Source of the DNA: Eledone cirrhosa
Lineage: Eukaryota
NCBI GenBank assembly: GCA_964016885.1
Contig: OZ024756.1
Location: 5,084,001 to 5,148,000, forward strand
Length of the DNA stretch: 64,000 nt
Direction: 5' to 3'
In this document: positions 1,407 to 54,250 of the stretch, piece by piece
How the letters are laid out: every line of letters starts with the position of its first letter
How positions within the stretch are numbered: position 1 is the first letter of the stretch
Notes under the pieces: model-generated
What the model saw: only the letters and a program-made list of their open reading frames with translations
The model's database searches: none
Told to the model about the DNA's origin: nothing
Program-made: the position numbers and the translations under genes

Positions 1407-1587
1407 TAGGAACGAGTAGGACCCCGACGGCTGAACTCAAGCCGTTTCGACGGCTAATTCTGAACGGCTAATTCTGAGCTCAGCCGTCGGGGTCCTACTC
1501 GTTCCTATTACCCACTCTACTACCCTAAGTATTGAGTACTTTGGTGCGTTATGGTCCTCCTGGTTCCTTACCACATTTCCATCGTTA
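1407..1587 (+). mobile_element. Short fold-back element, 'GGACCCCGACGG' family (3' half of an HHR plus tail)
   Basis: TAGGAACGAGTAGGACCCCGACGGCTGA ... TCAGCCGTCGGGGTCCTACTCGTTCCTA inverted arms, then an about 80-bp tail with GAGTAC. Other copies at 12252, 24405 and 54049. (TA)n flanks. Confidence 0.75.
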
Positions 1588-2267
1588 TATATATATATAT
1601 ATATATATATATATATATATATATATATCTGTTGAGAACTCTATTCGATTTGTGATGTTTTGTATTCTTGCAATTAGATACACAACTGAATTCATTCGCC
1701 CGATATAGGGGTTGCCTCCCTTGCCGATCCCCACGTGGGGTCAGCAATAGTCAGTCCTTGTATTAACATTGAAATAAAACCTGTTGAGAAAGCCGCTTCC
1801 TTGTTCAATCATCTTACCAGAAGCCTAACATTAATTATTTATATATGTAAGCGGACAGTACGTGATTTAGGAGTCGCAGAAACCGAAATACTGGATTTTA
1901 CCAACCTTCCAAGGGTCCGGGTAAATTTTTCAGTCACAAATATTTTTATTTGTTTGACCCGAATTACTTGATCGTTGTTTTTAGCTGTGCGAATAATTGT
2001 TTAACCATCGTCTCAGTGTGTTTGGCCTTTACGTATGTTGTAGCTCTGGTTCATCTGAATCATTGAGCGCTTGCCACACATCTCGGAGGTTGTTTTTCGT
2101 TATTTCGTGGGCCGAAATGCGATTCTCGATAATTTATTTGTATATATATATATATATATATATATATATATATATATATATATATATATATAAGCGTAAA
2201 ACTAATAAGACTTCGTGCTTTTGCATCTTTGTATTTGTCTTGTCTCACTCTTGAACTATATATATAT

Positions 2268-2372
2268 AATTGTTTCTACTTTTGGCACAAGGCCAGCAAT
2301 TACCCAGTGTATTACTGGTACTTTATTTTCTCGACCCCGTAAGGATGAAAGGCAAAGTGAACCTCGGCGGGA
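2268..2372 (-). mobile_element. SINE family A, 5'-truncated
   Basis: Reverse complement of the 3' half (CCCGCCGAGG..GCCTTTCATCCTTACGGGGTCGA..AGTACCAG..GTAGAAACAATTA) of the full copies such as 55920. Confidence 0.8.
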
Positions 2373-5300
2373 TATATATATATATATATATATATATATA
2401 TATATATATATATATATATATATATATATATATATATATATATATACATATACATATATACACCCATATATATATACACACACACATATACATTAATAAT
2501 AATAACAACAATAATAATAACGACAACAACAACAATAATAATATACACATACATATATATATACACATACAGGCACACATAAACATTTCTATACACACAC
2601 ACACGATAGCAACTAATATATATATATATATATATATATATATATATATATACTTACACACACACATTTGCTTACATACATACTGATAAACACACACACA
2701 CAAGATATATATATATATATATATATACTTACACACACACATATGCCTACATACATACTGATAAACACACACACTATATATATATATATATAAATATATA
2801 TATATATATAGCGAGTGTATGAGACAATAATAGCGAAACAAGGTATTACTTTAAAAAATTCCAGTTAATTGTATGATGTGAAAAAAGAAAAAAAGAGACG
2901 GATGATAGTAATGTTGTCGATGATGATATTAATGATGATGATGATGATATTAATGATGATGATGATGATATTAATGATGATGATGATAATGATGGCCATA
3001 CAGAAAACAACAACAAAAAAAAAAGGAAAGAGAAAACAAAGGTTTAGTACTGATTTAGAAATGACCATATCTTTTGAGGTTGGATGAGTTATTTGAGATT
3101 TACAAAAGTCTAACATCAACAACTGAATAGAGAAACATAAAAGACAGCTTTTCTTACAGTAGATGTCTTTTACAGGACAATGCCATCCAGATTTACGAGA
3201 ACTTTTAATGATGATAAATCTATGACCCATTATTTTTCAGACCTCCCACCGTTTCCCTGCAGCCATGCTGTGGCACAGATTTCAAGAGTTTTAGTCTATT
3301 ACAGCGGCCATGTTACTTTCACTGGTACTTAATTCATCGTTAATTCATCGTTCTCCTAAGATACGCCATGCCAAGTAATTATTGACGCACGGGGATGTAA
3401 CCTAGTCAATCATTAGTATCATGATTTTTTTTCTGTTCAAAAGTACTGGTCGGTACTCTCTCAACGATATGTGTGTGGCGGGGGTGCCAATTTGGGTGTG
3501 GTGGGTTTGGGTGTGAATTTTATAACATTTTCTGTGATAGAGCACAACTTGAAGCTATCGTCTTCATTTATCAGATAAATATGGTGGTCAGGCAGAGAGA
3601 ACCCATCATACTTCTTGTAACATTCAAAGGAGCATCCGAACTTAGCACTACATGTTACCAACACACTTAATATTACAACGTTTAGTTACGCCATAATGTA
3701 ATACTTACTTATATGGGGACTTCTACGTAGTTACTGAACCAGCTAAAACTAGCAGCTAAATATTTCTGAAACCAAACTATAAAAATGATAGATATTTTGA
3801 ATAACGTAGACATTGAGACATGCGGCCGTGAGAAAGATTGGATGATCGCTGCTAGAATGTCTTTGATCATAGAATTGTAGGATCATCTTTGGCCTGGAGG
3901 TAACCAACATTGCTTCTGAATACAGCGTGGCGTGTATGTCATTTGTTGGTTAGAAAAGACGGTTCTTTCGCTAGCAATCTGGCGCCTTCCTGACTGAATT
4001 GACTGCGGATCTTTTTGTTTTGAAGGAACCCTAAAAAGTTATTAGGATACTTTGTGGTTTGAAACTACGGCATTGCATATAGGAATCATAATATATCTTT
4101 ATCTTGTTTTCTTCTTTGAATGATATAAGGTAAACTGGTGGATTGTGAAAGAAAAAAAAAAATGATTTTGACATTTATGTATCAAACTTTTATTTTATTC
4201 TCGCACATAAAGCGAGGCCGTTAAAAGAATATTATATATATATATATATATATATATATATATATATATATATATATATATATATATATATATATTGTGT
4301 GTGTGTGTGTGTGTGTGTGTGTGTGTGTGTGTGTGTGTGTGTGAGGTTATATATAAGATTAACAACTTCCATTTTTATCACCCTTTCTCTTGTGCAGTTG
4401 TATGATTTACTTTTGAAATATGTTGCTTTGTCGATGAAATGACTTTCTTCTTCTTTCCTTACTTGTTCAAATAATGCTACAAGGGTGTTTTTTCCCTAAG
4501 ATAATCATCATGGAGGGTATTGTTGGAGAGAAGGCATGGAAGAATTCTGAGTAAAACTGTCAGGTTTATGTCTCATTTGTCGGAAACATATTCGTTTATT
4601 AGATGCCATGTTTTATAGACGCTGCATTCAAATTTCTCACCTTTTTATATTAAAACTATTTTATATATAATTTCTATAATGGTAACTGTTTTATTGTTGA
4701 GCGAAAGAAATCTCTTAATATATATCATATTTATAATTCCTTGTTACATTATAAAAACATTTACAGTTATCCTCATGCGTATAACTTTCACATATATCTA
4801 TATATTCCTTGTAAATTGCAACTAATTTATAGTTAATATATATAATATCTCCTGTTTCGCGCATTGACAGTTTTTAAATTTCATCTCTTAATGCATTCAA
4901 TTAAAAAATATTATCTCATTGACTAGTCTTTACTTTTTAAACTCTGACATATAGCTTCTAAGTAAATTCTTTTTATGTCAAGACGTATTACGCATGATTT
5001 TTCATACAATTTTTCTTGAAAATCATCGTTATTGATTTAAGAATATAAAAGAAATTGTTTTTCTTTTCTTTTTTATGGAGCTATTCTCTGAAAAATGACA
5101 AAATCACATGCTATAAGCATATACCTTTCCATTGAAATTGAAACTTTATTCGTATAGTTTCGTTTCTTATGTGAATAGATAGAATGTTAAAGTCGAGTCT
5201 TGATCTGACATACGATGTACAGTACCCCTTCTAAACATTTCGTTTAGTAGAGCGGACACACCATTTACAGAAACATCTTCCACATGTTAATTTCGTACAG

Positions 5301-5931
5301 AAAGCAATGTCGATAGTTAAGTTAAGCTTAGCATATTTATTGTGGTGAGCATTAAAATCAAATCTTACTTGAAATAGTTATGCGGTGAGGAAAATACAAT
5401 ACGTATTGTAACTTCTACTTGAGAGGATGGGGAAATTGGAGTCACGAGGTACTATTTAATTCACAACTCAGTTCTCTCTCTCTCTCTCTCTCTCTCTCTC
5501 TCTCTCTCTCTCTCTCTCTCTCTCTCTCTCTCTCCCTCATTAAATGTCTATATTCCAATGTAAATGACTATAATAACAGTTGATAATTATAAATAATAGT
5601 TGAGATAAGCTGGTAAAATACTCATGGAGAAGGAAAAAGGTAGAGAGAGGAGTCTGTAAAACATAGAATCCCTCAGTGATGCTGGATCAGTGGGTTAGCT
5701 ACTACATCTAGGAAAGGTTGGCAACTAATTACGTTCACTAGGAGTGTAAACTAAGCGTTTGACTTAGGATCATGGGGGAAATATAAAATGTGAAATGTGT
5801 GCATTTCACATTTTAAATTTCCTCTGTCTGTGGGTTTAAGAAAACTGAAATATTTATTTTTTACCGACGAAAATATTTAAAAGTTATCCTTTTCTGGGGC
5901 TTAATTGACGGAAACAGGTCTACTGTAAATA

Positions 5932-53484: not shown

Positions 53485-53750
53485 AGTGTTAGAAAGTAAA
53501 TGGATACAAACAAGAGATGGACATTTTCCCTTCATCAGTTGTCTACTACAGGTCACAGATGTTTGAGCGCATTACAGTTAATACATCTATCCGAAGCATG
53601 CCCATAACTGTATTCTCTATAATGCGCTGAAACATCTGTGACCCGTAGTAGACAACTGATGAAGGGAAAATGGCCATGTCTTGTTTGTGTCCCTTTACTT
53701 TCTAACACGCGTCATCAGTAACCACACAGATTCGTCCCTATGTATCCATA
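53485..53750. mobile_element. Fold-back element with split HHR-like motifs
   Basis: 53485-53578 and 53617-53708 are diverged inverted arms containing GAAAC and CTGATGAAGGG. An inverted fragment at 53708-53750 carries GGTTACTGATGACGCG. Confidence 0.6.
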
Positions 53751-53830
53751 TATATAAATATATAAATATATATATATATATATATATTTATATATATATA
53801 TATATATATATATATATATATATATATATA

Positions 53831-53960
53831 TGTAGGAGTTGAGTTTTATTGTAGAACAATAAAGCAATATAATAACGCAAATATCGTCCCAGGATGATAT
53901 TTGTTTTTGAAATACGCATAATATAATACAGGGAACTTTTTTAACCATCTTTTAATTTCT
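53831..53960. mobile_element. Collapsed copy of the 60402-60813 fold-back family
   Basis: 53831-53868 matches 60402-60440; 53878-53955 matches 60727-60805. Confidence 0.7.
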
Positions 53961-54048
53961 TCTTCTATCTATCTATCTATCTATCTATCTATCTATCTAT
54001 CTATCTATCTATCTATCTATCCCTCTCTCTCTCTATATATATATATGT

Positions 54049-54250
54049 GAACAGAGTCAGGAACCCGACGGCCGTTTCGACAGCTAGATCCTAACTAAGC
54101 CAGCAGTATTCGAATACGGGTGGTTTAGTTCGGATCTAGCTCAGCCGTCGGGGTCCTGACTCTTTTCCTAGTACCCACTCTATTACACTAAATATCGAGT
54201 ACTCTGGTGTGTTACAGTCCACCTGACATCTTCTCACACCATCTTTGTTA
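54049..54250 (+). mobile_element. Diverged member of the 'GGACCCCGACGG' fold-back family
   Basis: GAGTCAGGAACCCGACGG...CCGTCGGGGTCCTGACTC arms, long imperfect central hairpin, tail with GAGTAC. Confidence 0.7.

Follow-up and report, generated by a model that had tools for sequence, protein, structure and literature searches.

Inversion points of Penelope-like inserts in Eledone cirrhosa probably mark RNA 5' ends, with a minor part for the hammerhead ribozyme

What decides where a reverse-transcribed insert turns back upon itself? The question is raised by a 64,000-nucleotide stretch of the Eledone cirrhosa genome (assembly GCA_964016885.1, contig OZ024756.1, positions 5,084,001 to 5,148,000 of the forward strand; hereafter the window, with coordinates counted from its first letter), which comes from a source genome of 3.0 Gb, has a GC content of 30%, is rich in TA repeats and holds more than ten palindromes, other than microsatellites, from several families. 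An earlier note took them for 5' inversions of Penelope-like elements (PLEs) and proposed that the reverse transcriptase (RT) stalls at the folded hammerhead ribozyme (HHR) of the pseudo-long terminal repeat (pLTR), whereupon the cDNA snaps back and primes itself. The identification of the elements is borne out by our analysis; overall, that note's observation is partly confirmed and its interpretation partly supported. We propose that the position at which most inserts turn is probably the capped transcription start of a promoter in the pLTR: two cDNAs, primed on both target strands from two RT start sites, would run off the 5' end of the RNA and be joined head to head.

The palindromes are short inserts and fragments of ordinary PLEs, assigned to the Hydra type by protein motifs. 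In family A, the GGACCCCGACGG family of the earlier note, a 37-nt piece of the tail has 15,112 exact matches in the genome; in long copies a 3' untranslated region (UTR) of about 1.3 kb leads into an open reading frame (ORF) with RT and GIY-YIG-type motifs, and in tandem copies the tail runs on into a 95-nt 5' UTR followed by the ORF start. The family A protein is 41-45% identical, in two blocks, to the product of a window ORF (Table 1). The single ORF with RT and C-terminal GIY-YIG motifs (YRDD, VIY..YIG) that marks endonuclease-bearing (EN+) PLEs was found in L133-L136 and in the window ORF, together with a pLTR made by a partial tandem, an inverted 5' copy and a tail at one end. Both proteins further carry the motif set of the Hydra clade, as given in the accessible text of section 11 of PMC8557442: DKT, RWK, a CxCX5C linker, no CCHH, and CxxC/CxH, along with insertion in (TA)n. 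The Neptune clade was considered and dropped, the motifs fitting Hydra. Atlas matches of the PLE proteins include RVT_1 or GIY-YIG in 16-45% of their members; six PLE protein queries gave no match in Pfam, and a PDB sequence search gave none either.

Positions within each family are counted from the G of GAAA (0), mapped on natural long copies. For family A we took 99 of the first 100 tail matches on contig 1, picked regardless of apex, and kept L001-L030, L121-L137 and L147-L176 out of the counts because their queries crossed the apex or were placed 5' of it; this gave 75 inversion calls, of which one (L098) is false, while two tiny palindromes were missed. The inserts share one architecture, in which (TA)n is followed by an inverted arm ending at +43, the joint, a tail arm ending at +120 and (TA)n again, the outer end of the inverted arm lying at +43 in 62 of the 75 inversions and the tail arm ending at +120 in (TA)n in 88 of 90 checked. 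The deepest point of the inversion lies between -25 and -16, in the distal stem and loop II, in 50 of the 75, and beyond -25 in two true cases only. Among 173 arm ends, 77 fall at -23 to -16, 26 at -15 to -11, 7 at +22 to +24 and 11 beyond -25; solo (non-inverted) and tandem copies end at the same hot spot. Genome-wide, 4,597 loci have both arms reaching -17 and no more than 16 nt apart, placing the turn in loop II, and 311 loci of a single subfamily haplotype have both arms inside about +4 to +28, the two search patterns differing in subfamily coverage.

Such a wall of 5' ends recurs in other families, for which we used 90 further loci and 1 Mb of unselected sequence, with further family E loci from a pattern search. 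The per-nucleotide hazard of an arm ending was compared by Fisher test between the zone [-4,+2] around the proposed +1, the sequence downstream and the sequence upstream. It amounts to 0.198, 0.025 and 0.006, respectively, in family A (235 arms), 0.21, 0.035 and 0.006 in B (106 arms), 0.119, 0.004 and 0.005 in D (55 arms), 0.147, 0.0035 and 0.010 in E (25 arms) and 0.094, 0.008 and 0.003 in J (80 arms), each with p < 1e-5. The breakpoints are indeed non-uniform, as the earlier note had expected: in five of six families tested the hazard in the hot zone is 6-40 times that downstream. Family B ends pile from +1 to +8 because of subfamily offsets, with none between -2 and -12 (L186, whose spacer is 3 nt shorter than its sister's, was left out as a reference). 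Of 30 further family E arms, sharing one copy with the set of 25, 19 end at -6 to +5, none between -7 and -30, and 11 run on. With respect to the HHR core, the wall lies about 45 nt 3' of the core start in family A, and on its 5' side by 3-11 nt in B, 7 in D, 64 in F (few ends), 68-69 in E and 80-91 in J. Since the distance from +1 to the core varies by family, the ribozyme does not set the wall.

A Pol II core promoter typically has a TATA box about 30 nt 5' of a YC^A start. In each of families A, B, D, E and J the pile-up stands at an initiator-like YC^A or TT^AGT, YC^A being found at 1-6% of positions. All nine long family B copies keep TATAAATA despite divergent spacers, and T+30 falls on YC^A in six of them; four of five family F references have TATATAAATA with TC^ACT, the motif not being found in the fifth. 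Family A has a TATT(T/C)AAA-like word, weaker than those of B and F, in the 5' strand of stem II; T(T/C)^AGT follows after 29-30 nt, and four bases ahead of it stands a second motif, TC^ATT. The modal end of families D, E and J falls on YC^A. A G in place of the native base at -1 was seen, with TA-flanked ends excluded, in 17 of 30 family A ends against 17 of 63 at other ends (p = 0.01), in 8 of 16 against 19 of 78 for families D, E, F and J together (p = 0.065), in 9 of 13 for family E pooled (p = 0.001 against 0.25) and in one of the two countable family B arms. L093, L386/L387 and one C17 copy have this G in both of their arms. The available text of PMC3287187 attributes the untemplated 5' G of L1 and SVA to copying of the cap. 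Two other origins of these ends were dropped: a splice acceptor at TTTAG, there being no fixed upstream exon and many arms keeping the AG, and a Pol III promoter, for which no convincing boxes were seen by eye.

The joints speak to whether one cDNA or two are involved. Of the 75 family A inversions, 28 (27 without L098) have an inverted, tail-less arm that exceeds the tail arm by more than 4 nt, in 16 the tail arm exceeds the inverted one, and in 31 the two are similar; 33 joints are filled, 13 blunt, 16 have 1-2 nt of homology and 13 at least 3 nt. L075 and L116 are zero-loop palindromes. Snap-back would leave an inverted arm contained within the first arm and a loop of at least 3 nt, which neither the longer inverted arms nor the blunt zero-loop joints show; such arms do not come from a self-primed tail cDNA, unless deletion followed. 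Arms of two subfamily haplotypes are joined in L052 and, by eye, in L082. Short re-copied fillers are found at window 1462-1475, in L017 and in L049, which we take to resemble templated end-joining inserts. In the accessible text of PMC11167929, a PLE cuts and extends both target strands from two internal start sites that define the tail; two such sites on opposite strands match +43 and +120.

What, then, does the ribozyme contribute? In family A its 5' part comprises the stem I 5' strand (-68 to -64), the core (-63 to -57) and the stem II 5' strand (-56 to -45), and its 3' part the stem II 3' strand (-12 to -1), stem III (+4 to +20) and a predicted cut before +23, with the three helices around the core, the GAAA and the UH of a type I HHR. 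The stem II loop is long and has a weak predicted distal stem, which pairs in differing registers among subfamilies. In L044 the minimum free energy (MFE) structure is the HHR fold, and in three other copies the constrained fold lies 0.8-2.4 kcal/mol from the MFE; an Rfam scan gave microsatellite and hairpin noise only, with no HHR among the best 150 of 380 matches. Canonical CUGANGA occurs in none of the 45 long family A copies, which are not independent; 15 have UUGANAA (U3-A8), 25 CUGANAA with a C3-A8 mismatch and five other cores. U3-A8 is a documented HHR variant in the accessible text of PMC4209133. The earlier note would have given up its idea had full-length members lacked CUGANGA; to the letter they do, variant cores standing in its place. 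Short copies are without the core because they end 3' of it.

Two observations attach to the long copies: the commonest of them (L121-L132) have the C3-A8 mismatch, yet the same haplotype yields arms ending at the cut site; and L122, L126 and L129, near locus position 1430-1446, also break at a poly-G run some 800 nt 5' of the HHR, an observation that the query boundary may bias. A non-LTR retrozyme, with tandem units each holding a complete HHR, was rejected: the short family A units are head-to-head and without the core, and the tandem units L147 and L172-L174 likewise have none.

By eye, the first 50 of the 311 short-range loci comprise 20 joined in stem III, 11 joined in the AGCT palindrome of its loop, 11 others and 8 with both arms at +23 or +24 and filler between; the solo copies L106 and L113 also begin at +23. 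Arms that end at the predicted cut site fit copying of the 3' product of HHR cleavage; alternatively, the RT may have stopped ahead of stem III or where the G run ends. Outside family A, ends within 1 nt of the cut number 2 of 61 in B, 0 of 29 in G and 0 of 28 in E (those of family C being confounded by the query boundary), and the signal shows up in family A alone, the family with a stable helix III. The ribozyme is most likely a minor source of joining homology and cut ends. The proposal that its helices lie at the joints holds for some of these, through stem III or its loop, and finds no support as a general rule (311 versus 4,597 loci).

Briefly, the mechanism that we favor would run as follows. 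Pol II would start at the YC^A or TT^AGT motif, and the RT-endonuclease would nick both strands of a (TA)n target and start cDNA at its two internal sites. Each cDNA would run 60-250 nt to the cap, often adding a C opposite it, and host end-joining would link the two 3' ends, either bluntly, via 1-6 nt of self-complementarity or with filler, the joining homology being supplied in a minority by ribozyme stems and palindromes. In a few cases the template would instead be the 3' fragment left by HHR self-cleavage, and the arms would start right at the cut. For family A, a start inside stem and loop II would leave start-site transcripts without the catalytic core and hence without self-cleavage. 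More tentatively, and at somewhat less than an even chance, we suggest that one and the same short leader is copied by a paired RT onto each side of the target break, leaving thousands of single-base records of PLE starts (with cap G) and of in vivo HHR cleavage, and that one family has its promoter inside stem II, such that start-site transcripts would be uncleavable and read-through ones cleavable.

Several points weigh against a transcription start as the source of the wall. The start sites are deduced from DNA; in families D, E and J, which have no TATA at -30, +1 was chosen from the ends themselves and the identity of the motif is the only test. In family F, with its few arms, the zone holds 1 of 16 ends and the test falls short of significance (p = 0.34). 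Family G lacks a single wall and the pile-up in family C is at a TATAAT, a match to the (TA)n target; neither of the latter two supports the rule. At -1, G seems to be native in one family A subfamily (L038, L080, L109), and the base can also come from a partner arm. The wall overlaps ribozyme structure, namely the stem I 5' strand in B and D and the weak predicted distal extension of stem II in A; in all three families the RNA end may therefore be defined by structure. Later deletions in palindromes could create the asymmetry of the arms, and the subfamily agrees between arms in 46 of 51 pairs, as copying of one cDNA also predicts; hence one RNA or one source locus usually serves both arms, or one arm is copied from the other. 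Finally, by eye, just one of 17 ORF-bearing family A copies with a leader begins at the proposed start, with 14 reaching beyond -50 and two shorter. Full-length copies hence need longer or tandem RNAs, or a template jump, and short capped RNAs may arise mainly from 3' pLTRs or short copies. Head-to-tail tandem units made of leader, tail, 5' UTR and first codons also occur (L147/L148, L149, L164, L172-L174); they imply that the RT starts at a third site as well, some 20 nt inside the ORF, with the end of the preceding cDNA as primer.

Stalling at the folded ribozyme followed by snap-back, with HHR helices setting the inversion point, looks rather unlikely to us. It accounts for the stem III joints, which are real both in the window and among the short-range loci, for a wall at the stem I 5' strand in B and D or at the distal extension in A, and for the shared haplotype of most arms. 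However, stalling should leave ends at the 3' edges of helices, where only 4 (stem I) and 6 (stem II) of the 173 ends lie against 77 at -23 to -16; in B and D copying of the ribozyme is complete by the time the cDNA ends, in E and J a distance of 68-91 nt separates the wall from the ribozyme, and the registers of the distal stem differ among subfamilies. A tail-less arm that is so often the longer one is unexpected, the zero-loop palindromes cannot self-prime, non-inverted and tandem copies share the hot spot, and the TATA, initiator and extra G go unexplained. An RNA 5' end set by processing, through a structure-stopped exonuclease or an endonucleolytic cut, with two cDNAs running off it as we propose, is unlikely too, albeit slightly less so. 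It accounts equally well for the wall and fits both its place at the 5' edge of the HHR in B and D and the longer leaders of ORF-bearing copies, but it does not explain the added G, the TATA that B and F have at -30, or modal ends that fall on YC^A in four further families.

The hot spots could also reflect cDNAs that end at random and are joined at self-complementary or TA-like words, or the stops of later cruciform deletions. Such words do recur at joints, as CATATG in E, AATT, GTAC and AGCT in A, GCCGGC in the 33656 palindrome and TATAAT in C, and microhomology is present at 29 of the 75 family A joints; yet the other 46 are blunt or filled at the same positions, few ends lie upstream of the wall though AT-rich sequence continues there, and in family E even non-inverted arms with unrelated sequence at the joint have their end at +1 with G, all of which makes this explanation improbable. 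Least credible, to the point of being nearly dismissible, is a DNA transposon akin to a miniature inverted-repeat transposable element, or a fixed non-autonomous unit copied whole, although the inserts are short, palindromic, very numerous and set in TA repeats, as 88 of 90 tails show: the arms run colinear with sequence at the 3' end and in the 5' leader of an element that encodes RT and endonuclease, a tail is present on one side only, and the joint sequences differ among copies. The linkage to a PLE ORF likewise disfavors this identity.

In the window itself (Table 1), sequences and palindromes are found where the earlier note had placed them. Its four GGACCCCGACGG copies do have GAAA, stem III and the stem I 3' strand and all want the core; the turn at stem III at 12253-12390 is real, as are those at 60975 and 61150, which fall at the stem I 5' strand and core start. 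The 33656 palindrome turns, as claimed, directly 3' of where CUGAAGA would stand (-123 to -117), and is atypical, family D ends piling at -130. Other turns were misplaced. At 24457 the real stem II 5' strand is absent, and the supposed stem II hairpin 5' of GAAA in the short family A copies is the inversion itself; at 53597 the turn was assigned to the inside of a stem II-like hairpin, and CUGAUGA is intact in both arms with the apex on its 5' side; at 1407-1577 neither end coincides with that of a helix. Two palindromes absent from that note, with apexes at 1241 and 60652, turn about 50-63 nt 5' of an intact core, and the large inversion at 34059-42906, also absent from it, turns kilobases away.

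Table 1. Penelope-like inserts and related features of the window (arm ends in family coordinates).
Feature	Position	Strand	Details
5'-truncated PLE ORF	36608..38242	+	RT (YRDD), CxCX5C linker, GIY-YIG-type endonuclease without CCHH
Family A short palindromic insert	1407..1577	+	inverted arm +43 to -14, 14-nt duplicated end; tail arm ~+10 to +120
Family A insert joined through HHR stem III	12253..12390	- (tail arm on - strand)	6-nt homology; same joint in 20 of first 50 short-range loci
Family A insert	24405..24592	+	arms end -14 and -17, in the proposed start-site zone (loop II)
Diverged family A insert	54049..54250	+	arms to ~-21 to -27, internal deletion in each; initiator-like TTAGT kept
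Family D palindrome	33321..33856	-	perfect across 400 bp; both arms end -116 in GCCGGC palindrome; atypical of family
Long family D element	34059..42906	+	2.6-kb inverted 5' arm; apex kilobases from HHR
Complete family D type I HHR	42563..42718	+	stem I 10 bp, CUGAAGA 42573, GAAA 42696, predicted cut after 42708; putative start A 42566
Family C palindrome with tail	53492..53748	+	minimal HHR core intact in each arm; turns 47-68 nt 5' of it
Family B palindrome remnant	60931..60991	-	arms end -25 and -20
Family B palindrome	61032..61279	+	arms end -25 (G precedes) and -18
Family E palindrome	60455..60807	-	intact HHR in both arms; ends 1 and 14 nt 3' of putative start (69 nt 5' of core)
Family F palindrome	1060..1391	-	intact HHR in both arms; ends 6 and 22 nt 3' of putative start (64 nt 5' of core)
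Family G inverted pair	349..819	-	one long arm with intact HHR, other starts 3' of cleavage site

The family B palindrome at 61032-61279 has its arm ends about 30 nt 3' of where TATAAATA would be, a word that is absent here. When two contig sets were compared over 33340-33850, depth dropped at the apex and no contig among those listed spanned it; an assembly origin of that perfect palindrome is therefore possible. At L087:1808-2180 a different family has a palindrome, likewise perfect and about 370 bp long, that is akin to window 33457-33856. Family G has ATGCAAAT, which is octamer-like, along with a TATA-like word 5' of the HHR at window 349-600 and 48820-49050. Family I shows an identical 324-nt direct repeat at 47352-47675 and 47878-48201, whose two copies both contain an intact HHR on the - strand. 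Two more fragments from the endonuclease end of PLEs, both with CxCX5C linkers, lie at 9338-9802 (+) and 46293-46919 (-), and inserts of different families are nested in each other's (TA)n flanks, forming clusters (L036, L040, L203, L259, window 1391-1407 and 60807-61032). Beyond the PLEs, a dispersed repeat of about 190 nt, resembling a short interspersed nuclear element, has many copies (12799-12985, 16236-16419, 17820-18006, 22262-22478, 28748-28936, 45390-45780 and 55908-56109), and at 54673-55624 (-) a 22-nt tandem repeat stands beside an ORF fragment that resembles a DNA transposase remnant.

These elements can be set beside known systems, as far as the accessible text of each source goes. 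With the C-terminal EN+ PLEs of the Hydra clade (Craig et al. 2021, PMC8557442) they share DKT, an RWK-like RWR, the CxCX5C linker, the absence of CCHH, CxxC/CxH near the C terminus, an HHR in the pLTR, (TA)n targets and an inverted 5'-truncated copy with a tail; unlike that clade, which is generally under 3 kb, family A measures about 3.7 kb with a 1.3-kb 3' UTR, and its tail is 77 nt against 30-40 nt in PLEs. The Poseidon element PAc in vitro (Frangieh et al. 2024, PMC11167929) likewise starts reverse transcription at two internal sites between which the tail lies, cuts both target strands and extends them, has an AT-rich target and is a predicted dimer; none of its RNA reads ended at the HHR cut, whereas here genomic arms end at the predicted cut and at putative starts. 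Transcription of the Drosophila virilis Penelope also begins at an initiator within the pLTR (Schostak et al. 2008, PMC2377424), from a TATA-less internal promoter with initiator and downstream promoter element, in contrast to the TATA at -30 in B and F and to the family A promoter overlapping HHR stem II. L1 twin priming and cap copying (PMC11702581, PMC3287187) offer a second RT priming on the other DNA end, microhomology end-joining of two cDNAs and an untemplated 5' G on full-length ends; the inverted part of an L1 insert comes from elsewhere in the RNA, further upstream (PMC11702581), while here both arms copy the same 5' leader and yield a palindrome. The minimal HHRs of PLEs (Cervera and de la Pena 2014, PMC4209133) are also of type I within the pLTR, with the U3-A8 variant, a G10.1-C11.1 pair and opposite-strand HHR pairs 100-700 bp apart; family A differs in its stable 5-bp helix III, long stem II and, in the commonest long copies, the C3-A8 mismatch.

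The formation of inverted PLE pLTRs is described as unresolved in the available text of PMC8557442, and that of PMC4209133 and PMC11167929 gives no in vivo sign of PLE hammerhead cleavage. A search of the literature outside subscription journals, which hold among others older structural work on PLEs, found, in the text accessible, no paper that relates the points where PLEs invert to cap G, start sites or HHR cuts. The rule for where PLE inserts turn appears to be new. If it is true, the inversion point is the 5' end of the RNA, and the palindrome would be the direct product of two-strand priming from two known start sites. Arms ending exactly at the cut site would then be genomic evidence of germline HHR cleavage, and PLE promoters could be mapped from DNA alone. 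The palindromes would thereby preserve, like fossils, the places where transcription started and, in a minority, those where a ribozyme cut.

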